Positions 46,934 to 64,000 of a stretch of DNA of 64,000 nt are shown here, in pieces. Source of the DNA: a virus. Position numbers and translations under genes: made by a program. The stretch spans positions 40,213 through 104,212 of the IMG/VR virus record IMGVR_UViG_3300044641_010298. One strand, given 5' to 3'. The stretch's first letter is position 1. Every line of letters starts with the position of its first letter. The notes beneath the pieces are model-generated. The model worked only from the letters and a program-made list of their open reading frames with translations. It had not been told where the DNA came from and ran no database searches.

Positions 46934-46952
46934 GGCGGTGTCCATCACCGCC
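46934..46952 (-). promoter_or_regulatory. AUGGA-loop leader hairpin (copy 1 of 6)
   Basis: GGCGGUG-AUGGA-CACCGCC upstream of SD. Confidence 0.7.
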
Positions 46953-46998
46953 TCCTTGCCAGATCATCATACCATTCAGCGGTCAGCCCGCACGGGCT

Positions 46999-47208
46999 TC
47001 AGTGGTTGGCGATCCGGTTCGCCGCGGTCCGGTCGAGGTCCCAGCCCTTCTGCTGGACCGTCTGGTGGCTCGTGTCGACCAGGTCCTTCACCTCACCGCC
47101 CACCGTCCGGACAGTGAAGTTGCGGCCCGCAACCTCGATCACCTCAGCCGCCATCCACTCACCTCGGATCCGAACCACCAGGCTCTCACCAATCAGGGGA
47201 TTGACCAT
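46999..47208 (-). CDS. small SH3/Tudor-like cassette protein
   Basis: 69 aa; AAGGAGG SD; 'GESLVVRIRGEWMAAEV'. Confidence 0.7.
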   Translation of the reverse strand: MVNPLIGESLVVRIRGEWMAAEVIEVAGRNFTVRTVGGEVKDLVDTSHQTVQQKGWDLDRTAANRIANH

Positions 47209-47261
47209 GTTGCCTCCTTGTGATCCTATTCTACCACCGCGACCCTGCCCCGCACGGGCCG

Positions 47262-47543
47262 TCAGCCGACCATGAAGGCCGCCATCGGGACCCGCAGCGG
47301 GCGGCAGGCCGTCACCTCGGCCACCCAGGCCTCGTGCTTCGCCTCGGCCTCCGCCTCGAGCCGGGCCCGCTCACGCCACTCATCCTCGAGGTCCCGGGTC
47401 GCCGCCTCCCAGCCCTCCGCCGTGTCGTCCTCCGGGCGGTACCACCGCGGCTTGATGTTGTGGACCGCCTTGAAGGCGTCGACGAAGTTGTAGAAGGCCT
47501 CGACCTGGGCGTGGGTGGCGAAGGAGGCGGTGTTGATGGCCAT
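47262..47543 (-). CDS. cassette hypothetical protein
   Basis: 93 aa; 'DAFKAVHNIKPR'; own promoter. Confidence 0.75.
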   Translation of the reverse strand: MAINTASFATHAQVEAFYNFVDAFKAVHNIKPRWYRPEDDTAEGWEAATRDLEDEWRERARLEAEAEAKHEAWVAEVTACRPLRVPMAAFMVG

Positions 47544-47611
47544 GTTTGACTCCGTTCTCTGAGGTTGCCTAGCTCTGTTATTCTACCAACGGGTCCCAGG
47601 GACGCACGGGC

Positions 47612-47824
47612 CTACGTGAATCTTGAGCGGCGCCTTGCATCGATGTAGGCATCACCGGAGTCTTCAGCATCGCCAAACATTGGCTGAAACCGCTTGCTGT
47701 AGTGAGATCGGGTCGCTGTCTCGTCTTCCTCAGGCTCCCGCCAGGTCTCAGGGTCTTGATCGGGATCAGGCTTTCGTAGCTCTTCTCTGATGATGTGTCG
47801 AAGCTGGCGCTCGGTGATCCTCAC
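47612..47824 (-). CDS. leader-motif protein (MRITERQLRHIIREEL)
   Basis: 70 aa; GATATGTAG upstream. Confidence 0.75.
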   Translation of the reverse strand: MRITERQLRHIIREELRKPDPDQDPETWREPEEDETATRSHYSKRFQPMFGDAEDSGDAYIDARRRSRFT

Positions 47825-47920
47825 ATGTGCCCCTAGATGGGTCTACATATCGCCCTGGGCCAACAGCGACAACATCGCACAGACACAAGTCAGGCCCCAG
47901 TGACGGGGCCCGAGGTGGTG

Positions 47921-48301
47921 TTAGCGCGAGCGCTTGATTTGCAAGCCGTGCGGAACTCTTCCCGCCTCTATGCGGCTCTGGATCTCACCGGCTGGTAGAT
48001 CCAAGAATTCATCCGGATCGTCGCCGTACTCGTACTCATCCTCGTCTGGCTCATCGAGGTCGAGATTTGAAAACATGTCATCAAACTTCTTGCCAAAGTC
48101 AGGGTCAGTGAGCTTGGGTCGCCTGAACATTGTGGGCTCTCTCATCTTGCGGGCGGTCTCTGCACCCGGGCCAGAGAAGTCATCCATCCCAGACTCCTCG
48201 TAATCGCCTGTCTCTGGGTTCTTGCGGAATGTAACGCCCTTCCTCATCTCATTCAGCTCCTCGCGGACTATCCGGCGAAGCTGGCCCTCAGTGATCCTCA
48301 T
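47921..48301 (-). CDS. leader-motif protein (MRITEGQLRRIVREEL)
   Basis: 126 aa, acidic; GATATGTAG upstream. Confidence 0.8.
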   Translation of the reverse strand: MRITEGQLRRIVREELNEMRKGVTFRKNPETGDYEESGMDDFSGPGAETARKMREPTMFRRPKLTDPDFGKKFDDMFSNLDLDEPDEDEYEYGDDPDEFLDLPAGEIQSRIEAGRVPHGLQIKRSR

Positions 48302-48459
48302 GATGTGCCTCCTGTGATTCTACATATCGCCCCGCTCACCCAGTGCAGGATCAATGTTGCGCAGCGCCAGATCGCGCCCCTTGCATCAGGATCTCGGCGC
48401 CGTGATGCACATCGGGCGCCCCCAGACCGCATCTCCTGCAGCCTGTGGCGCCCTAGTGA

Positions 48460-48777
48460 TTAAGCCTTTGAACGCTTCCAGGCCATGTAGGCTGCCCTTC
48501 CCTCTTCAGCTGATCCGAAGTCCTGTCCGTGAGAAGGATGCGAAGATGGGAACTTGAGGCCGTAACGGAACTCATAATCAGCCTCTGACTCACCGGGACC
48601 GTCGTCGTCAACTCCGTAGTTCATCTCAGCGCTGCGGTCGTAGTCATATCCGCTGCTGTACCCGCCGCCGTAATAGCCGCTACCACCGTATTTGCTCCCG
48701 CCGCGGCGGTAGGTCTCTGTCATCCTGCTGATCTCTTCCTTGATGATCTTTCTCAACTGCGATGCTGTGATTCTCAT
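48460..48777 (-). CDS. leader-motif protein (MRITASQLRKIIKEEI), Gly/Tyr-rich
   Basis: 105 aa; GATAAGTAC upstream. Confidence 0.8.
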   Translation of the reverse strand: MRITASQLRKIIKEEISRMTETYRRGGSKYGGSGYYGGGYSSGYDYDRSAEMNYGVDDDGPGESEADYEFRYGLKFPSSHPSHGQDFGSAEEGRAAYMAWKRSKA

Positions 48778-48894
48778 GTGATCCTCTTGGTGTCTGTACT
48801 TATCACCATCCGTAGAACTTTAGCAGCGTTGTGAACACAACATTCCAGAACAGGATCAGCGTTGCCTTCAACAGGGTATCGAGGACCCAGAGCT

Positions 48895-49110
48895 CTACAG
48901 CCTGCCGTGTGATTCGAGCATGGTCACCACCTCGGGCGGTAGCTCCTCCTTCAGGATGCTCTGTGTCCCCACGCGGCCGTCCTTCGTCTTGTAGCCGATC
49001 TGCCATCCGTGCCTCACCTTCTGCTCTACCTCTAGCTCTGTCCCCTTGGGCCACTCAGTGCCGAAGCGGGTCGTGTACTTCTGCTTGAGAGTTACAACTT
49101 CACCAACCAT
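48895..49110 (-). CDS. SH3-like hypothetical protein
   Basis: 71 aa; AAGGAGG SD. Confidence 0.7.
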   Translation of the reverse strand: MVGEVVTLKQKYTTRFGTEWPKGTELEVEQKVRHGWQIGYKTKDGRVGTQSILKEELPPEVVTMLESHGRL

Positions 49111-49120
49111 TCTCTCCTCC

Positions 49121-49447
49121 TTAGCCTAGCGCCCAGCAGAGCGCAGCGAAAGCGATTGTGAATCCGATCTCCATCACCACCCGGGCCACATCTCTCGCCA
49201 GCGGCGGCGGCATCACCAGGAGCGACAAGCCCACCAGCCCGAGGGCAGCGGAGTACATGATCACATTGGCGATCAGGAACGCCGTCCCCCAGCCCCCAGC
49301 GATCAGGAGCACCGTGAGCAGGGACCAGCACCCGCGGAGCATGAGCGCCCAGGTTGGGTCATTCGCTCGCAGCGCCCGCCACATGTCCCAGATGGTCAGG
49401 GCGCCCCAGAGAATTGCACCGATCGATGGCATAGAACATCCTAACAC
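49121..49447 (-). CDS. multi-pass membrane protein
   Basis: several hydrophobic helices; start may be 49432. Confidence 0.6.
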   Translation of the reverse strand: MLGCSMPSIGAILWGALTIWDMWRALRANDPTWALMLRGCWSLLTVLLIAGGWGTAFLIANVIMYSAALGLVGLSLLVMPPPLARDVARVVMEIGFTIAFAALCWALG

Positions 49448-49465
49448 CCAGTGGGTGCTTGTGTA

Positions 49466-49606
49466 TCAGGTTCGAGAGATCTGGGAACAGACCACCAGCA
49501 TCACGACCCAAGCGACCATCAGGCCCAGGAGCCAGGCGGGGCCGTCGGACCAGGCGATGTGATCGACGGCCATGAGCTGGTGGAAACCCGAGATGACGTT
49601 GTCCAT
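49466..49606 (-). CDS. 46-aa membrane peptide
   Basis: MDNVISGFHQ...WLLGLMVAWVVMLVVCSQISRT; GGAGG SD and cassette promoter. Confidence 0.6.
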   Translation of the reverse strand: MDNVISGFHQLMAVDHIAWSDGPAWLLGLMVAWVVMLVVCSQISRT

Positions 49607-49658
49607 TCTTCCCTCCGTGGATCTATTATAACACGTGACCAAGATCCTGCACGGGTCT

Positions 49659-50111
49659 CTACCCAGCGTCCTCCCAGTCCTTGATCCGCTGCCAGAGGTC
49701 GAAGAGCCGCTTCACATCGGCGAGGGGCAGGGAGGTGAGTCCCTCGCTGAACTTGAGCGAGAGCTCGTCCATGTCCACCGTCACATCACCGCCACCCATG
49801 TTCACCGTGATGCTCCGGATCGGCTGGAAGGGGACGATGCAGCCCGAGGGGCTGACGGGACGGACAGCCGGCGTGCCGTCAGCAGTGGTCATGCCCCTGT
49901 CAGCCATCAGGACCTCGACGGCCTCCTTCGCCTCCTTCAGGCCGACGCCGGGCCGGTCCTTGCCGCTGAAAGGATCGATCGTTCGGTGGCGAGAGGCGTC
50001 GCGGACCACCTTGATCGCGTTGATCTTGTTGGCGTAGCCGCCGCCCGTCTTGTCGTCCAGGAGCGTCTTCACCTGGCTCATCTCTTCCGCGGTCAGCATG
50101 ATCTTGATCAT
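49659..50111 (-). CDS. ribosomal protein bL12 (L7/L12) CTD-like domain protein
   Basis: 'NKINAIKVVR' and 'GLKEAKEAVE' match L7/L12 C-terminal motifs, separated by an insertion. Confidence 0.7.
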   Translation of the reverse strand: MIKIMLTAEEMSQVKTLLDDKTGGGYANKINAIKVVRDASRHRTIDPFSGKDRPGVGLKEAKEAVEVLMADRGMTTADGTPAVRPVSPSGCIVPFQPIRSITVNMGGGDVTVDMDELSLKFSEGLTSLPLADVKRLFDLWQRIKDWEDAG

Positions 50112-50128
50112 CTTTCCTCTCCGTGGTT

Positions 50129-50467
50129 CTATTCTACCAGGACCCCGCGCTCTCGCAGGAGCTTCACAGCTGCGGTGTGCCCGTGAGCCGTGAGGATCTC
50201 GATCGCTTTCGCCTCAGCGGTGGGCTCGTCATCGGTGTCAGCGAGGATGTGACCCAGCTCGTGAGCCTCAATCGCCAGCAGGTGGTCGGGAGTGCACCAT
50301 CCCTGGCTGGCGATGCGCCCATCGATCACAGCGACTGGGTACTCCGTCCCGCGGATCGCATAGCCGTGATTCTGATCAGAGAGCCGCTCGACCACCGTGC
50401 CTTCATCTCGGTCCTCAACCTCGACGACCAGCACATTGCTTGCCATGTCGGACATCCTGAACTTCAT
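50129..50467 (-). CDS. HExxH metallopeptidase-like protein
   Basis: 'AIEAHELGHI...E..AE'. Confidence 0.6.
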   Translation of the reverse strand: MKFRMSDMASNVLVVEVEDRDEGTVVERLSDQNHGYAIRGTEYPVAVIDGRIASQGWCTPDHLLAIEAHELGHILADTDDEPTAEAKAIEILTAHGHTAAVKLLRERGVLVE

Positions 50468-50493
50468 CTCGCCTCCCTTCTACATCTATCGTA

Positions 50494-50913
50494 TCACTTC
50501 GCATGCCCGTCACACAGCGTGCGGACCCAGCCTCCGCCGCGGGGCTTCCCAGGTGCACCACAGATCTCACAGGTGCGGAGCGCAAGCGATTCAGCGAGAG
50601 CGATTGCACCGTCGATGTAGTCGTCGCTATTGCTCACATAGAATCGCAGCCCGCCCCACTTCTCCTTCACCTGCACCGCGACTGTCTGGTGGCCCTCATC
50701 CCATTCAGCATCAGTGAGGTCCTTAAAGTCGCTCTTCTTCCGCTTCCAGTCCAGGTGGTGCTGGATTGTGTTACACAGCGTGTCGACGATGTCATACCAG
50801 CCGTCGTCATGCTCGAAGCCGAAGCACATCAGTGTCTGGCGGGGATCGCCCCGCCTGTCACAAAAGATCTTCGGGTATCGCTCACACAGTGACTTGTCCT
50901 TCTCCTCAGTCAT
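50494..50913 (-). CDS. phage hypothetical protein with C-terminal Zn ribbon
   Basis: 'GFEHDDGW', 'QVKEKWGGLRFY', 'CEICG...C..H'. Confidence 0.75.
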   Translation of the reverse strand: MTEEKDKSLCERYPKIFCDRRGDPRQTLMCFGFEHDDGWYDIVDTLCNTIQHHLDWKRKKSDFKDLTDAEWDEGHQTVAVQVKEKWGGLRFYVSNSDDYIDGAIALAESLALRTCEICGAPGKPRGGGWVRTLCDGHAK

Positions 50914-51119
50914 TTATTCCTCTCGTTGTGTCTATCGAGCATCGCTTGAATCGCTTCGATCACCACCCGCTGGAATCCCTCTTGATCGTCCGGCTGGAGC
51001 CCAAACGCTGCATAGAACTGGTCAACCTTGTCATCCTCGATCTCGAAGACAAATCGCGACCCGCCACCCTCTTGCGGAGCCTCGCTAATGCTCAGCAGCC
51101 CAGGAATATCACTCATCAT
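50910..51119 (-). CDS. hypothetical protein
   Basis: 69 aa, overlapping start/stop with neighbours. Confidence 0.6.
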   Translation of the reverse strand: MMSDIPGLLSISEAPQEGGGSRFVFEIEDDKVDQFYAAFGLQPDDQEGFQRVVIEAIQAMLDRHNERNK

Positions 51120-51453
51120 TCTTCACCTTTCCAGACGCAGCCAGCTCGGCGTAGCCTGGGTAGTACCCAGTTCCCTCGTGTAGATGCCTGAGCAGATTCT
51201 GGGGCCCGAATCCCTCAGCGTCACAGTGGGCATCCCAGAAGTCCTTGATCTCATCATAGGCTCGCAGCTGGACGGTGCGGAGCCGGAGGATCTCTTGGCT
51301 GAGGCGGGTCACCTCCGACTCAAGCGCAGCGACCTTGCTCGGCTCCGACACCCAGCGAGCGAAATCACGAATGACACCCTTGTGTGATCGAAGCAGGTCC
51401 TCGACATCCTGCTCGTTGATTCTATGCAGCCAGCCTGGCACATCGTTTGACAT
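51109..51453 (-). CDS. hypothetical protein
   Basis: 114 aa, GGAG SD. Confidence 0.6.
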   Translation of the reverse strand: MSNDVPGWLHRINEQDVEDLLRSHKGVIRDFARWVSEPSKVAALESEVTRLSQEILRLRTVQLRAYDEIKDFWDAHCDAEGFGPQNLLRHLHEGTGYYPGYAELAASGKVKNDE

Positions 51454-51461
51454 CGCTCCCC

Positions 51462-51629
51462 CTAGAAGGTGATCACCTGCTCCCAGTCAAATTCCTCGGC
51501 ATCCGTGAGCAGCGCATCAAAGAGGCTCTGCTCAGCGCCGGAATCACCCAGTGCCTCCTGCATCGCCTCGCTTGGTGGCTGGTCAGGCCGCCGCTCGATT
51601 ACAATCTGGCGCGTCCTGGCGCGGTCCAT
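51462..51629 (-). CDS. 55-aa acidic hypothetical protein
   Basis: MDRARTRQIV...EEFDWEQVITF; fills the gap with TGATG coupling. Confidence 0.5.
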   Translation of the reverse strand: MDRARTRQIVIERRPDQPPSEAMQEALGDSGAEQSLFDALLTDAEEFDWEQVITF

Positions 51630-51859
51630 CACTCATCCTCGCCACGCTTCGTGTTGCCTGTCTGGGGCTGGCGCTTCCGGATCACCAGGGTGGCCCGTGG
51701 GCGCTCGCCTGGCTTGAGCTCGGCGTCATCCTTCGGGTAGAAGACCACGAAGGTGCTGTCGCGGAGGTCAACGAGCGCTGGAAGATCGGCTCCGCCGATC
51801 AGGTACTCATCCCCGTTCTTGTCGGTGCGGGGCGTCAAACGGATCTCAAATTGGTTCAT
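51629..51859 (-). CDS. hypothetical protein
   Basis: MNQFEIRL..., AAGGA SD. Confidence 0.6.
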   Translation of the reverse strand: MNQFEIRLTPRTDKNGDEYLIGGADLPALVDLRDSTFVVFYPKDDAELKPGERPRATLVIRKRQPQTGNTKRGEDE

Positions 51860-51872
51860 GGTAACATCCTTT

Positions 51873-52142
51873 CTATGATACATCTTTGTCGTCTGGCTCC
51901 TCGCTCACCGGACCATTCCGGAAAGGGAGGACATTGGGTCGAGGCGGAGCCTCCTCCTCGTCATCATCGTCGTCGTCATCGTACTGCCACCCGTTGGCGA
52001 GCAGCATCGCGATGAAGGTCGCCACCGTCTCCTGATGCATCTTGATGATCCGATCCCCGGTCCGCAGGCCGTAGATCGCGCCAAGGATCGCACCGCTGAT
52101 GAAAGAGAGCGTGACGAGGATGAGGGCGACTGAGGGGTCCAT
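51873..52142 (-). CDS. membrane protein with acidic tract
   Basis: N-terminal TM helix, poly-D/E tract. Confidence 0.6.
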   Translation of the reverse strand: MDPSVALILVTLSFISGAILGAIYGLRTGDRIIKMHQETVATFIAMLLANGWQYDDDDDDDEEEAPPRPNVLPFRNGPVSEEPDDKDVS

Positions 52143-52172
52143 GGCTATATTCTGGTCCAGGGCTGCGGGTTG

Positions 52173-52352
52173 TTAATGCTCGAGCGAGCCGGTCCGCACT
52201 TGGACCAGCGTCCATAGGTCATCCAGCGCCGGGTCCGGGTCCTCCTGTAGGGCAGCTTTAAGCGAGAAGAGGTCGTCGGGTTCCATCTCGTTCAGGAGCC
52301 AGAGGTTGTCTGCGACCTGACGAGGGGTGGGCGGTGCTTCAAGATTGATCAT
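52173..52352 (-). CDS. 59-aa acidic hypothetical protein
   Basis: MINLEAPPTP...; AGGAG SD. Confidence 0.55.
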   Translation of the reverse strand: MINLEAPPTPRQVADNLWLLNEMEPDDLFSLKAALQEDPDPALDDLWTLVQVRTGSLEH

Positions 52353-52360
52353 GTTGACTC

Positions 52361-52414
52361 CTATCGGAAAGAAGCGAGGAAGAGAAGGATGATGATGCCC
52401 ATGATGATCGCCAT
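52361..52414 (-). CDS. 17-aa hydrophobic peptide
   Basis: MAIIMGIIILLFLASFR; AAGGAGG SD directly after cassette promoter. Confidence 0.5.
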   Translation of the reverse strand: MAIIMGIIILLFLASFR

Positions 52415-52467
52415 TGTTTGCCTCCTTACCTTGTTATTGTACCAGGTCGCCCACCGCCCGCACGGGC

Positions 52468-52614
52468 TTAGCCCTCGACCTCGATCACCTGGAGGAGGCC
52501 CTCGATCGTGTCGAGGTCGAGGCCGGACCAGAGGGCGCGGGAGATGACCACGCCGGTGTCGAGCCCCTGGGCCTTGGTCGCGAGGATCTGGTCGATGAAG
52601 TGGTGAGCTGCCAT
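52468..52614 (-). CDS. 48-aa cassette protein family C
   Basis: MAAHHFIDQ...ISRALWSGLDLDTIEGLL; paralog of 59658..59810. Confidence 0.75.
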   Translation of the reverse strand: MAAHHFIDQILATKAQGLDTGVVISRALWSGLDLDTIEGLLQVIEVEG

Positions 52615-52626
52615 GTTTGCCTCCAG

Positions 52627-52645
52627 GGCGGAGTCCATCCCCGCC
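52627..52645 (-). promoter_or_regulatory. AUGGA-loop leader hairpin (copy 2)
   Basis: GGCGGGG-AUGGA-CUCCGCC (one G.U pair). Confidence 0.7.
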
Positions 52646-52705
52646 GCCTTGCCAGATTATTCTACCATCAGCTGTCAGGGTCGCACGAGGCCCCGGCCGG
52701 TGAGG

Positions 52706-53011
52706 CTAGAGGGAAAGGAATCGAGAGATATCAGAGGAATCAATGTAGAACTCAATGCCGGATTGAGTCTTGAGGCGGAGCTGGGGATGGGCCAGGCCGG
52801 CCTGCTTGGAGGTCAGGATGGCCAGGAGCTGGACTTGATCACCGGGGTTCAGGTGGGAGGTGGGATCAGGATTGATGGGGTAGGAATTGAAGGGGCCGGG
52901 GTGCCGGGAAACAAGGTTGGGAATGCGGGGGTTGAAGTTGATGCAGGTTTTCTTGGTGATGGTGAGGGTGGAGGGGTTGGTGTTCCGGATGATGGTGAGG
53001 TTGAGAGCCAT
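52706..53011 (-). CDS. cassette hypothetical protein (SH3-like C-half)
   Basis: 101 aa; AAGGAGG SD. Confidence 0.65.
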   Translation of the reverse strand: MALNLTIIRNTNPSTLTITKKTCINFNPRIPNLVSRHPGPFNSYPINPDPTSHLNPGDQVQLLAILTSKQAGLAHPQLRLKTQSGIEFYIDSSDISRFLSL

Positions 53012-53087
53012 TTGTCCTCCTTGGCCTATTCATTATACCAATCGATTCCGGATTCGCACGAGGCCCGGAAGGCCGGAGGCCATCCCG

Positions 53088-53471
53088 TTACGGGGCCGCC
53101 TCGAGCCCGAAGAAGCCGTCGTCACCGAGGACGAGGTCGAGCTTCGCCATCATCGCCGCGGCCTCGCCGCTGACCACCTCCTCGGCCGTCAGGACCGGGA
53201 CCACGACCGGCGCCGCTTCGACCACCTTCCGGGGCCGCTTGAGGACCGCCTCCGGGAGGGTCATGCCCGCCGCCTTCACCGCGGCCTTCGCACGATGGCC
53301 GATCGAGACCCGGGTCCCGCGGTCGAAGTCACCGCCGGTCACGTGCATGAGCATCTTCGAACCCCAGCGAAGAGGGGATGCGACAAACACTTCACCATCA
53401 GCAATCCCGTGGACCACGATGTTTCCGTCCTCAAGAACCACAGATTCGATAGAGATGTTCTTTGAAGCCAT
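53088..53471 (-). CDS. cassette protein family B
   Basis: 'LRWGSKMLMHVTGGDFDRGTRVSIGH'; start MASKN at 53471. Confidence 0.85.
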   Translation of the reverse strand: MASKNISIESVVLEDGNIVVHGIADGEVFVASPLRWGSKMLMHVTGGDFDRGTRVSIGHRAKAAVKAAGMTLPEAVLKRPRKVVEAAPVVVPVLTAEEVVSGEAAAMMAKLDLVLGDDGFFGLEAAP

Positions 53472-53581
53472 GTTTAACTCCTTGGTTGATTGCTGTTTGT
53501 TTCCGCCAGGATATTTTACCACTCATCTCAATGTTCGCACGAGAATCGATACATGAGAGAAGTTGTCGCCATACTTAGACT

Positions 53582-53672
53582 AGACCCCTGGTGAGTTAGT
53601 TCTCTTCTCCGGCAGAGAACTTCTGCGACAAACGATTTGTTCGCAACTCAGTATCAACCAGGGGTCTTTTTT
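53582..53672 (+). ncRNA. putative cloverleaf antisense/leader RNA (P4 CI / P1 c4-like architecture)
   Basis: P1 AGACCCCTGGT/ACCAGGGGTCT plus U-run, P2 GAGTT/AACTC, P3 AGTTCTCT/AGAGAACT, P4 GCGACAAA/TTTGT.CGC; loop and bulge complementary to 53704-53724. Confidence 0.55.
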
Positions 53673-56792: not shown

Positions 56793-57064
56793 GCGGCGAG
56801 CCTGGGCGACAGGATCCTGACGCCGGTGACCTGAACCAGGTGATCGATGTGCACATCGTCGAGCAGCTCACCGTCCTGGAAGTGGACCGAGACATAGTCG
56901 GGGTCGTCCTCGTCGATCTCCATTACCTCGCCCAGGAGGCCGTTGCAGTGCTTGATGAACTTCCCGAAGCCGTCACCGGGCTCCATCTCCCAGTCTGCCA
57001 GGGTCATGCCGCCCGCGGTCGCATCGAAGCGGACCGTGTCGCCCACCTTCAGGCCGCCTACCAC
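56789..57064 (-). CDS. SH3/KOW-like hypothetical protein
   Basis: 'LKVGDTVRF...LGEVMEID...VSVHFQDG'. Confidence 0.6.
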   Translation of the reverse strand: MVGGLKVGDTVRFDATAGGMTLADWEMEPGDGFGKFIKHCNGLLGEVMEIDEDDPDYVSVHFQDGELLDDVHIDHLVQVTGVRILSPRLAA

Positions 57065-57285
57065 AGGGCACCAGAGGCCGCGACATCGAAGGCCCGCTGG
57101 CGATCTGCCTCGACCGCAGCCTCGACCGTCTCGCTGCCGTAGGACCGGCGGGCACAGGGGTCGCAGTCGAAGAGGACCGGGGTCCCGTTGACCAGCGCCT
57201 CGAACCCAACGCCGCTGGGCCGGCCGCAGGAATCGCAGCGGGGCTGCGAGGGGCGGGTGACGAAGACCAGGTTGCTGCTGCTCAT
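57058..57285 (-). CDS. Zn-finger cassette protein
   Basis: 'CDSC...CDPC'; GGAGG SD before MSSSN. Confidence 0.6.
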   Translation of the reverse strand: MSSSNLVFVTRPSQPRCDSCGRPSGVGFEALVNGTPVLFDCDPCARRSYGSETVEAAVEADRQRAFDVAASGALW

Positions 57286-57392
57286 CTTACCTCCAAGATC
57301 GTTGTCCACATTCATATTGTAACACAGCGGGTGCCGCCCGCACGGGACGCAGCGTTCATGCCTCGCGCGTCGTTTTGATCGAAGATGGGTGG

Positions 57393-57596
57393 TTATATGG
57401 ACCGCTGCTCCAGGTCAGCATCCAAGGGCAGAAGCTCCTCTGGCCAGCAGGTGAGCGTGACGCCAGGGACGACAGGGTCCACCAGGATGATGAGCCTGTC
57501 ATCATCGCTGTCACAGCCCAGGACCATGGCAAGCCGCCCAGCGTATTCGGGGGTCCACATCTCGGGGATGAGGCGAACGATGTCGCCCGGCCCCAT
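57393..57596 (-). CDS. SH3-like hypothetical protein
   Basis: MGPGDIVRL...; TGATG coupling. Confidence 0.55.
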   Translation of the reverse strand: MGPGDIVRLIPEMWTPEYAGRLAMVLGCDSDDDRLIILVDPVVPGVTLTCWPEELLPLDADLEQRSI

Positions 57597-57928
57597 CAGA
57601 AGGCCCCGTCCTGGACCAGGGCCTTGCACATCCGGGCGATGGCCACTCGGGCCCCTCGACCCATGAACAGGTCCTCATCGACCCCGGCCGTGCAGGCGAG
57701 AACCTCTTCCTTGACCCCGTGCCCGACCGGCTTGGGCATCCGGGGGTGGAGGCCATTCCAGTTGACCTTGAACCGGGTCGGGTACCGAGGGTCCATCCGG
57801 TCAGTCGCCACGAACTTGTGGGTCGTGCCGTCCGGAGCAGTGGCCACCCCGCTCACCGCGATCTGACCGATGGCCGAGCGGCGGATGTCCGTGATCGAGA
57901 AGCTCCAGCGAAGGTTGGCGGTGCTCAT
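57596..57928 (-). CDS. cassette protein family A, paralog of 46404..46727
   Basis: near-identical central segment. Confidence 0.85.
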   Translation of the reverse strand: MSTANLRWSFSITDIRRSAIGQIAVSGVATAPDGTTHKFVATDRMDPRYPTRFKVNWNGLHPRMPKPVGHGVKEEVLACTAGVDEDLFMGRGARVAIARMCKALVQDGAF

Positions 57929-58004
57929 TTCGTTCTCCTTGGTCCGTGGTTCCTTACCTTCCCATCATACCAGGTCGCTGTCCGCCCGCACGGGACTCGT
58001 AAGC

Positions 58005-58157
58005 TCAGGCTCCACGAATGAGTTCGATGCCGAGCGAGATCGAGGCCATGATGCTGATGAGGAAGGCGGTGCAGGCGACCGCGATCACGAGCCAGATCAG
58101 CTCGTCACGGGTCGGGAGGGTCGCGAGAGCGTTCCGGATCTGCCACTTGATGTCCAT
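58005..58157 (-). CDS. 50-aa membrane peptide
   Basis: MDIKWQIRN...LIWLVIAVACTAFLISIMASISLGIELIRGA. Confidence 0.6.
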   Translation of the reverse strand: MDIKWQIRNALATLPTRDELIWLVIAVACTAFLISIMASISLGIELIRGA

Positions 58158-58209
58158 TCTGTCCTCCGTGCTCTGTTATTGTACCATGCTTGCAGCCGCT
58201 CGCACGGGC

Positions 58210-58404
58210 TCAGTCCTTACACTTCTCACAGATGTACAGCTGATTGGCCGGCCAGTTCGCCTCGTAGGTGCCACACCACTTGCAGTCACGGCCCCAGTCC
58301 TTCGCCGACCCGACCATGTTCGCCTGAATGATGCGGGAGGGGCTGTGGGCCGCCTGGCGGCGCTTGGCGGTGGCGGCACGGGGATTGAAGAAGAGCTTGT
58401 CCAT
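58210..58404 (-). CDS. Zn-finger cassette protein
   Basis: 'CKWC...CEKC'. Confidence 0.7.
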   Translation of the reverse strand: MDKLFFNPRAATAKRRQAAHSPSRIIQANMVGSAKDWGRDCKWCGTYEANWPANQLYICEKCKD

Positions 58405-58457
58405 TCTGTCCTCCTTGGCCTGATTATTCTACCATCCGTACCGCCGCCCGCACGAGC

Positions 58458-58694
58458 TCAGTACATTGAGGCCAGGATGTCCATCTCACTGAAGCCGAAG
58501 GGGAACGGCTTGATCTGGTGGCTGAGCTCGGCCATGGCGACCAGGTGGTGCCCGCGGCCGGTGAAGGTGCAGACCACCATGTCGTTCCCGTAGTCGCCCT
58601 CCCACTGCTCGACCTTCAGGCCGAGCTCCTGGGCCAGGCTGAGGAAGCGGGGCAGGGTGTCCTTCGAGATGTTGATGTCGAGGTTCTTGGTCAT
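58458..58694 (-). CDS. cassette hypothetical protein
   Basis: MTKNLDINI...; GGAGG SD. Confidence 0.7.
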   Translation of the reverse strand: MTKNLDINISKDTLPRFLSLAQELGLKVEQWEGDYGNDMVVCTFTGRGHHLVAMAELSHQIKPFPFGFSEMDILASMY

Positions 58695-58706
58695 TCTGTC
58701 CTCCAG

Positions 58707-58725
58707 GGCGGGGTCCATCCCCTCC
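58707..58725 (-). promoter_or_regulatory. AUGGA-loop leader hairpin (copy 3)
   Basis: GGAGGGG-AUGGA-CCCCGCC (one mismatch). Confidence 0.65.
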
Positions 58726-58768
58726 ACCTTGCTTGGATATTGTACCATGCCGCCGGTAAGTCGCACGA

Positions 58769-59050
58769 CTAGGGGGAAACTGCCGTCTTGACCTCCTTCT
58801 TGGTGTAGGGGTGGGTGTACCGGACGATGAGCTCGATCGAGTCTTCATAGGACCATCGGGCATCGACCACCACTGCCTTCAGGTCATGGAGCTGGGTCTG
58901 ACCGGTGGTGGGGTCCTTCAGCTTCCGCTGGATGGTGATGAAACGGTGGACCAGCGGGAGGAAGGCCTGGTCGAGGGCCTTCTGGCGGTAGTCAGCTAAG
59001 AGGTCGTGGGCGGTGGTGGTGAAGGTCTCGAGCTCGTCGGGGGTGATCAT
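58769..59050 (-). CDS. cassette hypothetical protein
   Basis: 93 aa; AAGGAGG SD. Confidence 0.75.
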   Translation of the reverse strand: MITPDELETFTTTAHDLLADYRQKALDQAFLPLVHRFITIQRKLKDPTTGQTQLHDLKAVVVDARWSYEDSIELIVRYTHPYTKKEVKTAVSP

Positions 59051-59099
59051 TCTGTCCTCCTTGCTCCCTTATCATACCATCAGGTGTCGGCCTCGCACG

Positions 59100-59126
59100 A
59101 AACGGCCGCCCCCGAAGGGGCGGCCG
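59100..59126 (-). terminator. UUCG-loop hairpin/terminator
   Basis: CGGCCGCCCC-TTCG-GGGGCGGCCG followed by TTT, abutting the next promoter. Confidence 0.65.
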
Positions 59127-59138
59127 GCCGAGCTCCCA

Positions 59139-59588
59139 TCAGGCAAGGAGGAGGAGGAGCTCGGACTTGTTGAGGTCGGAGTAGCCCTTGAGGCCACGGT
59201 CCTTCGCACGGGCCTTCAGCTGGGGGACCGTCAGGGCGGTGAGGTCCTCGTGCGTCGGGGTCGGGTCCACGACCAGGTCGAGGAGGACCGGCTCGACCGG
59301 GGCCTCGACCTTCACGGTGACCGTGAGGTCGGCGGGGTCGGCCGCCTTCCGGGGCCGCTTGAGGGGCGCCGGGGTCATGTCGAGGCCGGCCTCGCGGACG
59401 GCCTTCTTGGCCGCGTGACCGACCGCGATCCGGGCCCCACGGTCGAGGTCACGGGCCGTGACGTGCATGAGGACCTTCGAGCCCCACTGGAGGCGGGTGG
59501 CGACGAAGGGGACATCGCCGATCGTGCCGACCACGGTGGGGGTGCCATCGACGGAGGTGACGGAGCTGATGGTGATGTTCTTGGCCAT
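59139..59588 (-). CDS. cassette protein family B with C-terminal Rho-N/HeH-like domain
   Basis: 'LQWGSKVLMHVT'; 'LTALTVPQLKARAKDRGLKGYSDLNKSEL'. Confidence 0.85.
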   Translation of the reverse strand: MAKNITISSVTSVDGTPTVVGTIGDVPFVATRLQWGSKVLMHVTARDLDRGARIAVGHAAKKAVREAGLDMTPAPLKRPRKAADPADLTVTVKVEAPVEPVLLDLVVDPTPTHEDLTALTVPQLKARAKDRGLKGYSDLNKSELLLLLA

Positions 59589-59657
59589 TTGTTCTTTCCT
59601 TGGTTGGTGGTGGGTGGCTTGATCATTATACCAGGTCAGCGGCATCCCGCACGGGAC

Positions 59658-59810
59658 CTATTCGGCGGCCAGGTCCTGGGCGGTCTCGAGGAGGCTGTCG
59701 ATCGTCTCGAGGTCGAGGCCGGACCAGAGGCCTCGGCTGATCAGGGTCGCCGTGTCCGCCCCGCCCTTGATTGCCGCCGCCGCCTGATCGATGAAGTCGT
59801 GATGAGCCAT
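59658..59810 (-). CDS. 50-aa cassette protein family C
   Basis: MAHHDFIDQ...ISRGLWSGLDLETIDSLL. Confidence 0.75.
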   Translation of the reverse strand: MAHHDFIDQAAAAIKGGADTATLISRGLWSGLDLETIDSLLETAQDLAAE

Positions 59811-59864
59811 TCTGTCCTCCTTACTCTGTTATTCTACCACCACTCTGTCTGCCCGCACGAACCC

Positions 59865-60038
59865 TCAGTACCCCCGGTGCGTGATCCGCTGGCCGACCAG
59901 GTTGAACACCTGCCCACAGGCGCACCGGGCACCGTCATGGGTGATGGTGAACGACTTGCCCGTCTCCTCGCACGCCACCCGGGTCCGGACCCGCTCCTTG
60001 CCGTTCACCGTGATCGTCACTTGGGTCTTCGTGTGCAT
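59865..60038 (-). CDS. Zn-ribbon-like cassette protein
   Basis: MHTKTQ...'CACGQVFNLVGQ'. Confidence 0.65.
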   Translation of the reverse strand: MHTKTQVTITVNGKERVRTRVACEETGKSFTITHDGARCACGQVFNLVGQRITHRGY

Positions 60039-60053
60039 GCTGCCCTCCTTCTC

Positions 60054-60072
60054 GACGGTGTCCATCACTGTC
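60054..60072 (-). promoter_or_regulatory. AUGGA-loop leader hairpin (copy 4)
   Basis: GACAGUG-AUGGA-CACCGUC (compensatory A-U, one mismatch). Confidence 0.6.
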
Positions 60073-60121
60073 CCCTTGATGATTCAGTTATACCAGGTGG
60101 GGGTCACCGTTGCACGAACCC

Positions 60122-60319
60122 TCAGCCGTTCGCCGGGGCCTCGTAGTTCCGGAGGTTGAACTCGCGGAGGGCGGCGCAGGTCTCCTTGTGGATGCCCCTC
60201 TCCTCGGCGAGCTTGAAGAGGGCGTTCGCGATGTCGGCGGTCTCCTTGGAGTCCAGGCCGTAGTTGACGTAGGCCTGGGTGGTGAGGCCGATGAGCTGAG
60301 CGATCTGGTTGGCGTTCAT
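60122..60319 (-). CDS. cassette hypothetical protein
   Basis: 65 aa; AAGGAGG SD. Confidence 0.75.
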   Translation of the reverse strand: MNANQIAQLIGLTTQAYVNYGLDSKETADIANALFKLAEERGIHKETCAALREFNLRNYEAPANG

Positions 60320-60371
60320 TCTGTCCTCCTTGCTCTGTTATTCTACCAGGTCGTGGGCCGCCCGCACGGGC

Positions 60372-60563
60372 TCAGCGGATCCAGCGAACCTCGACATCCA
60401 CCCACCGGTTGCCGTCCGGGTCGCCCGGGCTCGCCGCGACGATCTTGGCGCTGAGAACCCAGCGCCCCGGGTGCTCGGCCTCGAACTGGGCCTTCGCTGC
60501 GAGGATCGTCTCGCGGATATCGGCCGAGGTCTGGAAGAAGCGGATCTGATTGACGTGGGTCAC
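60372..60563 (-). CDS. cassette hypothetical protein
   Basis: 63 aa; AAGGAGG SD, GTG start. Confidence 0.7.
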   Translation of the reverse strand: MTHVNQIRFFQTSADIRETILAAKAQFEAEHPGRWVLSAKIVAASPGDPDGNRWVDVEVRWIR

Positions 60564-60616
60564 GATTACCTCCTTGCTCAGTTATTCTACCATCCGCTCC
60601 CCAGCCCGCACGAGCC

Positions 60617-60898
60617 TCAGTCGTGGGAGCCACGGCACCGGACCCCGTGGTCGGGGCAGCTGTAGCTGACGATGCAGCAGCACGGGACCTCCTCGGCCTT
60701 CGGGCAGCAGCGGCCACCGCTGATGGTCTCGGTCACCTGGCGTGCGTGGTGGGTCCAGGCGATGGGGGTCGGAGTGCCGCGGCCGAGGGAGGACCGCACC
60801 CGGGTGTTGAAGTCCTCCGGGCTCACTCCGAAGATTCCGGCCGAGGTCTGAAGCGCCTTGTAGTCCGCCCGGTACTGCTCGATCGACTTCGTCTTCAT
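60617..60898 (-). CDS. Cys-rich cassette protein
   Basis: 'CCPKA...CCC...SCPDHG..C.GSHD'; start MKTKS. Confidence 0.7.
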   Translation of the reverse strand: MKTKSIEQYRADYKALQTSAGIFGVSPEDFNTRVRSSLGRGTPTPIAWTHHARQVTETISGGRCCPKAEEVPCCCIVSYSCPDHGVRCRGSHD

Positions 60899-60951
60899 CT
60901 TGCCTCCTAGCTCTGTTATTGTACCACCCACTTGCCAACCCGCACGAGACC

Positions 60952-61092
60952 CTAGAACGGGGCCGTGCCGCTGTCGACCTGGGCCACCCAGGCCCAGAAG
61001 GTCTCGAGCTCCTCCGGGGTGGGGTCCTCGAGCCCCACCACCTCTTCATCATCACCACCGAAGTCGATGTCATCCACGATCAGGTCGCGCAT
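60952..61092 (-). CDS. 46-aa highly acidic peptide
   Basis: MRDLIVDDIDFGGDDEEVVGLEDPTPEELETFWAWVAQVDSGTAPF. Confidence 0.6.
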   Translation of the reverse strand: MRDLIVDDIDFGGDDEEVVGLEDPTPEELETFWAWVAQVDSGTAPF

Positions 61093-61177
61093 CTTGCCTC
61101 CGTAAAGCCATCATACCATCACAGTCGTGGCGCGCACGGGCAGCGCGTCGTGCGGGTGCAGCTCGCCCGGTGTAGGG

Positions 61178-61327
61178 TTAGGGCGGTGGCGGCCCGCTGC
61201 GGAGGCGGTCGACGACGGCCGCGACGACTCGGTAGCTGACGTCGAGCAGAGCTCCGGCAGCGTAGAAGGCGAGGCCGGTCGCCACAGCGGCAGCGACCAG
61301 GGCACAGACGGTGTTGACCAGTGACAT
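61178..61327 (-). CDS. 49-aa membrane peptide
   Basis: MSLVNTVCALVAAAVATGLAFYAAGALLD... Confidence 0.5.
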   Translation of the reverse strand: MSLVNTVCALVAAAVATGLAFYAAGALLDVSYRVVAAVVDRLRSGPPPP

Positions 61328-61328
61328 G

Positions 61329-61622
61329 TCAGCCCTCGTATCCGGCCGCGACGCAGCCGTTGATCCACTCGAAGAACATCTTCTGGCCGCTGATCCGGCT
61401 CACCTCATCACCGAGCTCGAGCCACCAGTCCAGGGGATTCGGGTGGTTGTAGTCGTTCGGGATCCCGGTCCCCTCGTGGATGATGCAGACCAGGGAGCCC
61501 TTCCGGCTCCAGCCGCCCGGGTCCTGCCCACCGCGGAAGACCATCTTGTTCACGTCCAGGTCCAGGCCCAGCTCCTTGCCGGCGATCTTGAGGGCGTGTT
61601 TCGTGGCGACGTAGGGGCTCAT
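61329..61622 (-). CDS. cassette hypothetical protein
   Basis: 97 aa; 'DPGGWS', 'FFEWIN'. Confidence 0.75.
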   Translation of the reverse strand: MSPYVATKHALKIAGKELGLDLDVNKMVFRGGQDPGGWSRKGSLVCIIHEGTGIPNDYNHPNPLDWWLELGDEVSRISGQKMFFEWINGCVAAGYEG

Positions 61623-61752
61623 TCCTTTCCTCCTTGCCTCGTTATTCTACCATGTGCTGGGCGCTGCGCACGGGCGCAGGATGCTGGGCGCTCGATAACC
61701 TGGGCGCAAGATGAGCGCTCGACAGCGAGCGCCCACCCCGGACCCGGAGGTC

Positions 61753-62079
61753 TCAGGCCTCGAGCTCGACCTCGAAGACCACCTCGGACAGGGCCACCGG
61801 CTCGGAAGGGGCGGCCTCGGAGGCCTCGACCTTGGTCTTCCGGGGGCGCTTGAGGGGGGCCGGGGTGAGGTCGATGCCCTGGGCACGGACGGCCTTCTTG
61901 GCCGCATGTCCGATCGAGATTCGGGTGCCCCGATCGAAGTCACCACCGGTCACGTGCATGAGGACCTTGCCGCCCCACTGGAGCTGGGAGGCCTGGAAGC
62001 TCTGCTCACCGACCGTGCCGAAGACCACCGCCTTGCCGTCCACCACCGTCACGTCAGAGATCTTGATGTCCTTGGCCAT
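61753..62079 (-). CDS. cassette protein family B
   Basis: 'LQWGGKVLMHVTGGDFDRGTRISIGHAAKK'. Confidence 0.85.
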   Translation of the reverse strand: MAKDIKISDVTVVDGKAVVFGTVGEQSFQASQLQWGGKVLMHVTGGDFDRGTRISIGHAAKKAVRAQGIDLTPAPLKRPRKTKVEASEAAPSEPVALSEVVFEVELEA

Positions 62080-62149
62080 TTGATTTCCCCTTGATTGTTG
62101 CCGTGATTGGCTTGGTTATTGTACCAGGTTCCCCGTCATTCGCACGGGA

Positions 62150-62377
62150 TCAGCGTTCGTATTCCTTGTACCGGCGCTGGATCTCAGCCACCTCTTTGCG
62201 GACGATTCGTGCGAGGGCCTCGCGGGCGTTCTGATCGTGCGACAGGGTGAAGGCGAGGCACTTGACCATCGTCTGGGCGACGACCGTCGAGCTCGCACCG
62301 GCGAAGCTGTCACCTTCGAGATCCATGTCGCACCAATCCACGAGGATGTCAGCGAGCTGAGCCATATCCGTGTCCAT
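62150..62377 (-). CDS. cassette hypothetical protein
   Basis: MDTDMAQL...; alternative in-frame start 62404 in hairpin loop. Confidence 0.65.
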   Translation of the reverse strand: MDTDMAQLADILVDWCDMDLEGDSFAGASSTVVAQTMVKCLAFTLSHDQNAREALARIVRKEVAEIQRRYKEYER

Positions 62378-62392
62378 GATTCCTTCCTCCAG

Positions 62393-62411
62393 GGCGGGGT
62401 CCATCCCCGCT
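62393..62411 (-). promoter_or_regulatory. AUGGA-loop leader hairpin (copy 5)
   Basis: GCGGGG-AUGGA-CCCCGC. Confidence 0.7.
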
Positions 62412-62456
62412 GCCTTGCTTGATCATTGTATCACTGTATCAGTCCGTCGCACGGGA

Positions 62457-62696
62457 TCACCAGATGACGAGCACCGCGATCTTGCCGTTCTCATCGTCCT
62501 GGTTGAACTCCGGCTCCTTGTCGGAGGGTTCCCAGTCATCCAGCTCGTCATCAGTCAGATCCGAGGTGTCATCGGACCAGGTGCCCCGAGAGACCTGGAC
62601 GATGTCCTCGGGATCACCCCGCTCCGGGTCCAGGACCTGGACCTTCATGTCCTGGGGGAGAGCCTGGAGCTCCTTGATCAGTTCCGAAACAGTCAT
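62457..62696 (-). CDS. acidic cassette protein (MTVxELIxxLxxxPxD type)
   Basis: 79 aa; AAGGAGG SD. Confidence 0.75.
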   Translation of the reverse strand: MTVSELIKELQALPQDMKVQVLDPERGDPEDIVQVSRGTWSDDTSDLTDDELDDWEPSDKEPEFNQDDENGKIAVLVIW

Positions 62697-62747
62697 GATT
62701 GCCTCCTTGCTTGATCATTGTATCACCCGCCCAGCCTGGCGCACGGG

Positions 62748-63098
62748 TCAGAGGCGGCCCTTGTGGTTCGTTCCGATCGAGCCGCTCTCGCCCACCTTCC
62801 TGAACTTCAGATTGCCCATGTAGCTGTTGCTGTTGGACATCTGACAGGCCTTACCCACGTTCTGTCCGCTGTTGGATCGCCACGCCTTCACATAGGCAGC
62901 TCGATCCTTCTCAGATCCGAAGGCGAGGACGGTGACGCCCACACCCTTTCCGTCACCGGCCGCGACCCCGGCATAAGGGACCGCCGTCTCGGTGCCCAGC
63001 TCCTCCACGCAGTCTGGGCACTCGTTGATCCGCCCGCCGATCGAGCGCTTCTGAGGAGAGGTGTGATCGAACGAGACCCCGCAGTGCTTGCAGTCCAT
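62748..63098 (-). CDS. Zn-ribbon cassette protein
   Basis: 'MDCKHCG...ECPDC'; AGGAGG SD. Confidence 0.75.
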   Translation of the reverse strand: MDCKHCGVSFDHTSPQKRSIGGRINECPDCVEELGTETAVPYAGVAAGDGKGVGVTVLAFGSEKDRAAYVKAWRSNSGQNVGKACQMSNSNSYMGNLKFRKVGESGSIGTNHKGRL

Positions 63099-63120
63099 TA
63101 TGCCTCCTGCGCTTATTGTA

Positions 63121-63330
63121 TCAGGTGTTGTCAGTGTCGCACGCCCCGCGGCAAGCCTTCCGGCTCGCTTCCCGCCGCTTGTCCGGTCGGACGCTGTGCT
63201 CACCCCGCCAGTCAGCCGGGGTGCCGCCGGCTGCGAAGTGGGCAGCTCGATCGAATCCCCGAAGGAGGCGGAGGGTGTCCAGCCGCTTCAGGGTGGTGGC
63301 CTTCAGGGTGTGGCGATTCGTGTGTGCCAT
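63121..63330 (-). CDS. basic cassette protein
   Basis: 69 aa; 'WRG......DKRREASRKACRG'. Confidence 0.7.
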   Translation of the reverse strand: MAHTNRHTLKATTLKRLDTLRLLRGFDRAAHFAAGGTPADWRGEHSVRPDKRREASRKACRGACDTDNT

Positions 63331-63380
63331 GATTCCTCCTTGCTCCTATATTGTATCAGGCTGCGGAGGACCCGCACGGG

Positions 63381-63545
63381 TTAGAACACCGTCTCATCCA
63401 GCGGCAGGGCGACGACCGGGCCTTCCCAGCCGGCCGGGACGTAGATCGCTTCCGCCTCGAGTCCACCGGTGTAGACGCGGCCCTCGAGCGTGGGGGCCTT
63501 CGCGACGTTGAAGAGGGTGGCGAGGAAGAGGATGATGGTGTTCAT
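63381..63545 (-). CDS. 54-aa protein with signal-like N-terminus
   Basis: MNTIILFLATLFNVAKA...; AAGGAG SD. Confidence 0.6.
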   Translation of the reverse strand: MNTIILFLATLFNVAKAPTLEGRVYTGGLEAEAIYVPAGWEGPVVALPLDETVF

Positions 63546-63589
63546 TGATGTCTCCTTGGTTCTGGTCTGGTGGGTGGTGCCTGGTTATT

Positions 63590-63721
63590 CTACTTGGTGG
63601 AACCGGTGACGCACGCGCGATGGTTCGACAGACCGACGCAGGCGGTGGACCCCTTCAGGCTCACAGTGACACCGAGGTAGAGAGCGAGGCCGATCGCGGC
63701 GACAATGATCAGAAGCTTCAT
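63590..63721 (-). CDS. 43-aa membrane peptide
   Basis: MKLLIIVAAIGLALYLGVTVSLKG...; AAGGAGG SD. Confidence 0.55.
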   Translation of the reverse strand: MKLLIIVAAIGLALYLGVTVSLKGSTACVGLSNHRACVTGSTK

Positions 63722-63733
63722 CTTGTCCTCCTT

Positions 63734-63752
63734 GGCGGTGTCCATCACCGCC
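63734..63752 (-). promoter_or_regulatory. AUGGA-loop leader hairpin (copy 6)
   Basis: GGCGGUG-AUGGA-CACCGCC, identical to copy 1. Confidence 0.7.
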
Positions 63753-63989: not shown

Positions 63990-64000
63990 GCCTCCCCATA

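Follow-up and report, generated by a model that had tools for sequence, protein, structure and literature searches.

Here, we provide comparative sequence evidence that a small hairpin with an invariant AUGGA loop recurs as an optional leader element in the single-gene promoter cassettes of a large phage. Six copies lie in a stretch of 64,000 nucleotides (nt), hereafter the window, which forms the final 64 kb (positions 40,213 to 104,212) of the linear IMG/VR virus record IMGVR_UViG_3300044641_010298 (104,212 nt). Each copy splits the Shine-Dalgarno (SD) sequence of its cassette and stands directly before a second, intact SD. Comparison with copies in related contigs points to an RNA structure that is very probably under selection, with the stem kept paired and the loop kept fixed. 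The best overall explanation that we can offer, although we hold it with slightly less than even confidence, is a portable RNA leader module that tags early messages for control by a factor reading the loop.

A recurrent hairpin in an array of promoter cassettes

The hairpins are found in an array of at least 33 (about 35) single-gene cassettes on the minus strand (46400-64000), where promoters precede almost all of the small genes individually; the array reaches the contig end. The cassettes follow the consensus cCGTGCG-N14-TGGTAnAAT, then about 7 nt, then CAAGGAGGacagaATG, with 32 matches at fixed spacing and a few more that differ by 1 nt. The extended -10 box TGGTAnAAT is present and CGTGCG occupies the -35 position at a 17-nt spacer; a canonical sigma-70 -35 element was not found in the cassette promoters. 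In ordinary cassettes the leader from the -10 box to the start codon measures 16-21 nt, and many genuine starts in the array have the context ATGGAC. The stop codon of the preceding gene often abuts the promoter element, with no intrinsic terminators between the genes.

The first-pass annotation of this DNA had reported six hairpins of 6-7 base pairs just ahead of the SD of unrelated open reading frames (ORFs), and this description holds. The positions given there are the low, plus-strand ends of hairpins that all lie on the minus strand (Table 1). All six are 19 nt long and have the AUGGA loop, closed in every case by a G-C pair, and the stems are complete in three hairpins (7/7 pairs) and one pair short in the other three (6/7). 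Each ends 2-6 nt upstream of a GGAGG-type SD, and the six proteins encoded downstream fall in six separate families. As a pentamer, ATGGA shows no enrichment in the window. It is, however, the most frequent loop among the hairpins with a 5-nt loop on the array strand, and 6 of its 33 occurrences form hairpins, whereas positions in general do so in about 1% of cases. Four of the six window hairpins are stable and dominant in the predicted fold of their leader.

Copies were also sought outside the window. Exact-pattern scans recovered one further copy in G001, an IMG/VR contig of 96,830 nt from a different metagenome, and at least seven in at least six short metagenome contigs with the same cassette type (L134, L161, L205, L221, L245 with two copies, and L246). 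Among the matches listed in the IMG/VR exact-pattern scans, G001 was the sole related contig, the rest being chance coding matches, and a protein-guided IMG/VR search likewise yielded no related contig beyond G001. The comparison set thus comprises 14 copies in nine gene families and 14 of the 110 cassettes in the window and its relatives. A covariance model, of the kind suggested in the first-pass annotation, was built on the 14 copies and separated them cleanly from other sequence. The six window hairpins score 49.5-67.2 bits and the next best window match 15.7 bits, a gap from which we conclude that the window holds exactly six copies; over 185 kb the same model gives 14 copies at 49.5 bits or more, only one of them in G001, and nothing else above 16 bits. 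No Rfam 15 covariance model matched positions 44000-64000 of the window at E<=1 under permissive thresholds, and a limited literature search returned no published description of such a hairpin.

Table 1. Hairpins, leader elements and downstream genes in the window. All features are on the minus strand; lengths of gene products are in amino acids (aa).
Hairpin (copy)	Hairpin position	Arm-loop-arm	Pairs	Energy (kcal/mol)	Score (bits)	Leader	GTGCG (-35 position)	-10 element	CAAGG	True start	Gene	Remarks
1 (46945)	46934..46952	GGCGGUG-AUGGA-CACCGCC	7/7	-12.1	63.2	46914..46993	46989-46993	TGGTATGAT 46966-46974	46954-46958	46914-46916	46797-46916, 39 aa	Hydrophobic product; loop AUG 46943-46945, then true SD and true start
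2 (52638)	52627..52645	GGCGGGG-AUGGA-CUCCGCC	7/7, one G.U	-11.4	57.8	52612..52686	52682-52686	TGGTAGAAT 52659-52667	52647-52651	52612-52614	52468-52614, 48 aa	
3 (58718)	58707..58725	GGAGGGG-AUGGA-CCCCGCC	6/7, A.G mismatch	-8.7	62.2	58692..58766	58762-58766	TGGTACAAT 58739-58747	58727-58731	58692-58694	58458-58694, 78 aa	
4 (60065)	60054..60072	GACAGUG-AUGGA-CACCGUC	6/7, A.C mismatch	-3.8	49.5	60036..60095		TGGTATAAC 60087-60095	60074-60078	60036-60038	59865-60038, 57 aa	
5 (62404)	62393..62411	AGCGGGG-AUGGA-CCCCGCC	6/7	-12.1	65.1	62375..62452	62448-62452	TGATACAAT 62425-62433	62413-62417	62375-62377	62150-62377, 75 aa	
6 (63745)	63734..63752	GGCGGUG-AUGGA-CACCGCC	7/7	-12.1	67.2	63719..63801	63797-63801	TGATACAAT 63774-63782	63754-63758	63719-63721	63590-63721, 43 aa	Long-leader type; hydrophobic N-terminus

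Compensatory changes around a fixed loop

The stem covariation described in the first-pass annotation is correct: the pair that adjoins the closing pair is U-A, G-C or G.U, and near the base A-U takes the place of G-C (copy 60065). In an alignment of the 14 copies over 52 columns, 96.7% of cells are paired, compared with 36-63% when the partners are slid, and none of 500 shuffles reached the covariation score. Two-sided changes occur at three of the seven pairs (GC/AU/GU, CG/AU and UA/GC/GU); at pair 13-29, for example, G-C, G.U and A-U are all seen, and at pair 14-28 C-G, A.G and A-U. The 5' arm of hairpin 3 recurs before a different gene in one of the L245 copies (L245a), where the mismatch is compensated to A-U. 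Variation is confined to the stem, with 8 of 14 stem columns but none of the five loop columns variable. Twelve of the 14 hairpins have predicted energies of -9 to -13 kcal/mol, and every copy is in sense orientation, placed after the promoter and before the SD. That the module behaves as an RNA structure, as proposed, is supported by the compensatory changes, the G.U intermediates and the restriction to the sense strand, and its site is one from which it could control translation.

A promoter-proximal inverted repeat that recurs along a co-directional array could in principle also serve as a DNA operator for a dimeric repressor or, considered as a pentaloop hairpin, as a nut/boxB-like antitermination signal read by an N-like protein. 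A dimeric operator, however, would show the opposite of the observed pattern, in which the arms covary around an invariant, asymmetric centre, and G.U pairs work only in RNA; on these grounds, together with the sense-strand placement, we favour an RNA hairpin. As regards antitermination, the array has no more terminator-like sites than chance would give (10 versus 9.4 expected), so that an obvious target for antitermination is missing, the hairpin is not accompanied by a boxA-like repeat, and the AUGGA loop is not GNRA-like. We therefore regard an operator or nut-like function as extremely unlikely.

Gain and loss of the module

The hairpin element is an insert of 24-29 nt that splits the canonical SD into CAAGG and (G)GAGG. 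This is clearest for the gene behind leader 2, whose product starts with MAAHHF: the window reads CAAGG-cggcggggATGGActccgccctgg-AGGCAAACATG and G001 reads CAAGGAGGCAAACATG between identical flanks, a clean 24-nt indel, and excision of the 24-nt insert from the window leader restores CAAGGAGG. An in-window paralog of the same gene (59658-59810), starting with MAHHDF, is also hairpin-free. The G001 ortholog of the hairpin 1 gene lacks the hairpin through a 29-nt indel, while L134 carries an identical copy in which the module is 100% conserved and the flanks diverge. Hairpin 6 has an identical copy in L246, and the G001 cassette with the orthologous promoter (4014) is hairpin-free. Hairpin 5 is retained in its G001 ortholog (L125:5640-5658), where U-A replaces G-C at the corresponding pair. 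Altogether, hairpin presence varies among relatives or paralogs in four gene families, and the module moves or is lost as a unit between orthologous genes. That it is an optional module on a subset of cassettes, as the first-pass annotation had it, agrees with its presence in six of about 35 cassettes in the window.

These patterns raise the possibility, which we consider doubtful, that the module is a mobile 24-nt 'regulon tag' inserted into, or copied between, the SD sites of cassettes, thereby shifting single early genes under the control of one loop-specific factor. If true, the phage lineage could add individual early genes to this control, or remove them from it, within very short evolutionary distances, and comparable tags with other loops may exist in many large uncultured phages of aquatic habitats.

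Variable presence between close relatives, and near-identical copies before unrelated genes, would also be expected of an element with little function. The insert could be a recombination scar, i.e., the fused start of an older cassette (SD, ATG GAC ACC GCC) that cassette shuffling left behind, or a selfish mini-palindrome that favours the AAGG|AGG site and spreads by gene conversion between conserved ends of cassettes. AAGG indeed occurs on both sides of a 20-nt core in four copies, and partly in others, and the 5' arm of copy 60065 retains the canonical GGACAG spacer. Against both variants, an invariant loop together with compensatory changes indicates that the fold is selected, and in the comparison of the window with L134 conservation is higher in the module than in its flanks. 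A Y1/IS200-type transposase was not found in either phage fragment (the window's record, G000, or G001), and a subfamily with a CTGG flank moved together with that flank, which fits homologous copying and not target-site duplication. A scar or selfish palindrome is therefore very unlikely.

Relation to translation initiation and to the transcript 5' end

In all 14 copies the loop AUG lies 8 nt past CAAGG (CAAGG-N8-AUG), which is the spacing of canonical CAAGGAGGACAGAATG. In standard short-leader copies it also lies 20-21 nt past the -10 box, like the start codons of ordinary cassettes. With the loop AUG at the position of a start codon and the GGACAG spacer kept in the arm of copy 60065, the module therefore resembles a canonical region of initiation in which the spacer is paired with 'codons' 2-4 and which is followed by a second, intact SD.

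It could be expected from this geometry that the loop AUG is itself used. As the genuine start of the gene it was rejected, since paralogs and orthologs without the hairpin start at the downstream AUG (MAHHDF, MAAHHF); comparison with these hairpin-free genes places the true N-terminus there. A tandem start or leader mini-ORF would be a subtler version, in which translation from the loop AUG either reads in frame, adding 8-9 residues, or stops at ATGA and re-initiates, i.e., a natural 'bicistronic design' whose first start is tuned by the hairpin. Besides its canonical spacing and the frequent genuine use of ATGGAC starts in the array, the loop AUG is in frame 0 in six gene families and in frame +2 with an ATGA stop/start overlap in two. 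The in-frame bias was nevertheless dropped as evidence for translation: it is not independent, because a 24-nt module was copied into cassettes of equal SD-AUG spacing, and both L245 copies are counterexamples in frame +1, where translation would run through 84 and 114 out-of-frame codons. The frame also differs between the orthologs L221 and L245a. Moreover, opening the hairpin would cost about 9-13 kcal/mol, the substitutions in the 'codons' are non-synonymous and follow the stem, and the proteins work without the N-terminal extension. Regular use of the loop AUG is unlikely, and we give the tandem-start explanation as a whole only a small chance.

The hairpin lies about 7 nt (about 15 nt in the long-leader type) from the 5' end of the transcript as predicted from the -10 box alone, and the transcript probably starts with these nucleotides, which include the SD remnant CAAGG. 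Stem-loops and untranslated SD sequences of this kind act as 5' stabilisers of mRNA in the ompA and aprE leaders, the cryIIIA STAB-SD and SP82 early RNA. These systems share with the present leaders an SD-like sequence that starts no gene and a hairpin near the 5' end (the predicted one, in the present case) of a strongly transcribed message. The hairpin could accordingly be a stabiliser or insulator by structure alone, either blocking RNases that depend on the 5' end or keeping the true SD unstructured. The short leaders of ordinary cassettes are in line with this explanation, and stem pairing is what selection demonstrably keeps. However, the known stabilisers need no fixed loop, whereas here none of the loop columns varies. 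The unpaired 5' stretch of at least about 7 nt also exceeds the few nucleotides that classical 5' stabilisers tolerate, and most cassettes manage without a hairpin. We consider a purely structural role unlikely.

Possible CsrA-type control and other candidate readers of the loop

The first-pass annotation had attributed the hairpins to CsrA-type control, or to control by a phage protein, on account of the GGA motifs in loop and SD. In this scheme, a CsrA/RsmA dimer from host or phage would bridge the two GGAs and either repress the tagged cassettes or be titrated by them. The geometry fits. A CsrA-compatible A-N-GGA loop is found in 14/14 copies, and a second GGA in the true SD follows 12-16 nt after the loop GGA, inside the range of 10-63 nt over which a CsrA dimer bridges two GGAs (PMC7652899). 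The arrangement resembles CsrA/RsmA leaders such as those of Escherichia coli glgC and Pseudomonas hcnA in its loop GGA upstream of a GGA-bearing SD, and matches glgC in placing the hairpin directly upstream of the SD (PMC7652899).

CsrA itself is not specifically supported. Its high-affinity site RUACARGGAUGU has conserved ACA and GU, is mostly presented in a hexaloop and usually has a stem of at most four pairs (PMC7652899). The phage hairpins instead have the context (G/U)G-AUGGA-C(A/C/U), without the ACA-GGA-UGU preferred in in vitro selection (SELEX), a pentaloop closed by G-C, and seven GC-rich pairs compared with mostly four or fewer in the SELEX ligands. The U at the N position is invariant, which CsrA would not require. 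The check for csrA in host or phage proposed by the first-pass annotation was run for the phage, and a six-frame search of the G000 and G001 fragments, each about 30% of a genome, gave no PF02599 match at E<=1. On balance, we judge a CsrA/RsmA operator to be improbable.

It is possible, although we would not call it probable, that a loop-specific factor acting in trans reads the hairpin and sets translation or message stability. In our proposed portable leader module the hairpin would be a cis-acting tag, recognised in the RNA by a loop-specific factor, in a mode like that of a translational operator set directly against the SD. Candidate readers are an RNA-binding protein of either phage or host and the 30S ribosomal subunit itself, which might sense the SD remnant together with the AUG. 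Tagged early messages would then differ from untagged cassettes in translation rate or lifetime. A trans-acting RNA with a complementary UCCAU loop was considered as well and rejected, as none was found on the transcribed strand of G000 and nothing was shared with G001.

Several observations count against the portable-module explanation. The 14 copies derive from one narrow phage group and comprise two stem subfamilies; they are homologous repeats, not independent inventions, and the independent compensatory events are for this reason few, perhaps four to five. Part of the 'covariation' may be gene conversion between the subfamilies, and the invariance of the loop may reflect descent from the ATGGAC start context of the array instead of recognition. 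Hairpin 4 is the weakest (-3.8 kcal/mol) and absent from the predicted in-context fold, hairpin 3 is weak (-8.7 kcal/mol) with a pairing probability of 0.24, and whole-leader folding z-scores are not significant in the GC-rich sequence of the array. The transcription start is predicted solely from the position of the -10 box. Finally, no candidate binding protein was identified among the ORFan proteins of the array: a check of 42 array proteins for known RNA-binding domains detected only Rho_N/SAP and HNH.

Large phages have early 'host-takeover' regions made up of small genes whose functions are little known, and the ranking and timing of their expression is largely obscure outside T4. A portable RNA tag gained and lost gene by gene would, if true, be a simple way of dividing early messages into post-transcriptional classes, and would provide a small natural element with which translation could be tuned. 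Clean natural pairs, in which one gene occurs once with the 24-nt insert and once lacking it, make the idea easy to test.

Comparison with other phage elements

In the coat-protein operators of PP7, MS2 and Qbeta and in the T4 gp43 operator, a hairpin bound by protein encloses the start region, with the AUG in the loop in PP7. The present hairpins share with these operators the small size, the sequence-specific loop and the position next to, or containing, an AUG and SD. Unlike in those operators, the loop AUG is not the start of the gene, and the true SD and AUG lie outside the hairpin.

The PeSL elements of T4-type phages (Arbiol et al. 2010, PMC2839356; Comeau et al. 2014, PMC4122927) likewise repeat an early-type promoter, SD and start before small ORFans, in a plastic region of a large myovirus where gene content and indels vary between close relatives at the repeats. 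The PeSL stem-loop, however, is situated upstream of the promoter and was interpreted as the terminator of the preceding gene (PMC2839356, PMC4122927), whereas the hairpin described here lies downstream of the -10 box, within a split SD, in approximately one cassette in six, and has a fixed loop. The -35 position also differs (CGTGCG versus TTGACA/TTTAC), as does the location of the array in an island of 62% GC within a genome of 40% GC.

Cluster K mycobacteriophages possess SAS, a 13-bp motif (GGGATAGGAGCCC) 3-7 bp before gene starts, and ESAS, a 17-bp imperfect inverted repeat with variable spacers (Pope et al. 2011, PMC3203893). Common to SAS/ESAS and the present array are a phage-specific SD motif before many non-structural genes, an additional upstream inverted repeat in a subset of them, and presence or absence that may differ within one gene family. 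The ESAS authors favour DNA binding because departures from the repeat do not support RNA pairing (PMC3203893). In our case the motif is CAAGGAGGACAGA, and the 7-bp arms depart from each other in a compensatory manner around an invariant centre, which favours RNA.

Genomic context

The source record is 32% complete as estimated by CheckV. GC content is 37-48% in the window up to about 44 kb and 59-66% from about 46 kb to the contig end. G001 is collinear with the window record throughout and has its GC jump at the identical junction (window 44000-46500). An assembly chimera behind the jump was ruled out on this basis, and the GC-rich island is thus real. The 62% GC island and the rigid promoter with its non-canonical -35 are unusual in themselves. 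A syntenic array occupies G001:1-21000, with gene content and indels that differ from the window. Both the window record and G001 terminate inside the array, which might mean a terminal repeat or an assembly that broke where the promoters are repeated.

Known phages include no close relative of this phage, the top matches having about 30-33% protein identity, and 8 kb of array sequence compared by blastn with 50,697 known phages gave no match. A tRNA scan of the window found none, and a search for host clues among species-representative genomes gave only chance coding matches among the matches listed.

The 42 array proteins tested are ORFans except for one with a Rho_N/SAP domain and an HNH endonuclease encoded on the opposite strand. 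The endonuclease gene (53637-54392, plus strand; Pfam E 3.7e-08) breaks the array, stands in sequence that is locally AT-richer and is probably a mobile insertion of the homing type. A family of three paralogs (59139-59588, 61753-62079 and 53088-53471, minus strand) has unusually long, CA-rich leaders of 36-41 nt and a conserved N-terminal domain of about 80 aa, with four strands and a helix, that ends in LKRPRK. The paralog at 59139-59588 has an extra C-terminal domain of Rho_N/SAP-like helix-extended-helix type. This is the sole array family that hints at nucleic-acid binding, and a protein search returned 58 homologs in metagenomes, some on contigs of up to 90 kb. We make no claim of a SpoVG-like fold for it, as the best match (Z 6.3, root-mean-square deviation 2.5, 68 aligned) is below the noise guide. 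Long leaders also precede a second pair of paralogs (46404-46727 and 57596-57928, minus strand; 107 and 110 aa), whose products start with MATANLRW and MSTANLRW. In the more distant relatives L161 and L205, the usual cassette has the -10 box TGGTATACT, and the hairpin-bearing cassette has TGGTAGAAT and a long CA-rich leader; the hairpin may thus be inherited along with the variant -10 box and the leader type.

The part of the window before about 44 kb consists of a backbone of large-myovirus and auxiliary genes, including a gp6-like baseplate wedge, PhoH, glycosyltransferases and a PrkA/SpoVR/YeaH-like trio. The genes of this trio stand together (34482-38908, minus strand) and specify a PrkA-like kinase/AAA protein, SpoVR and a YeaH/DUF444-like protein, and the trio is also present in Thermus phages and some huge phages.

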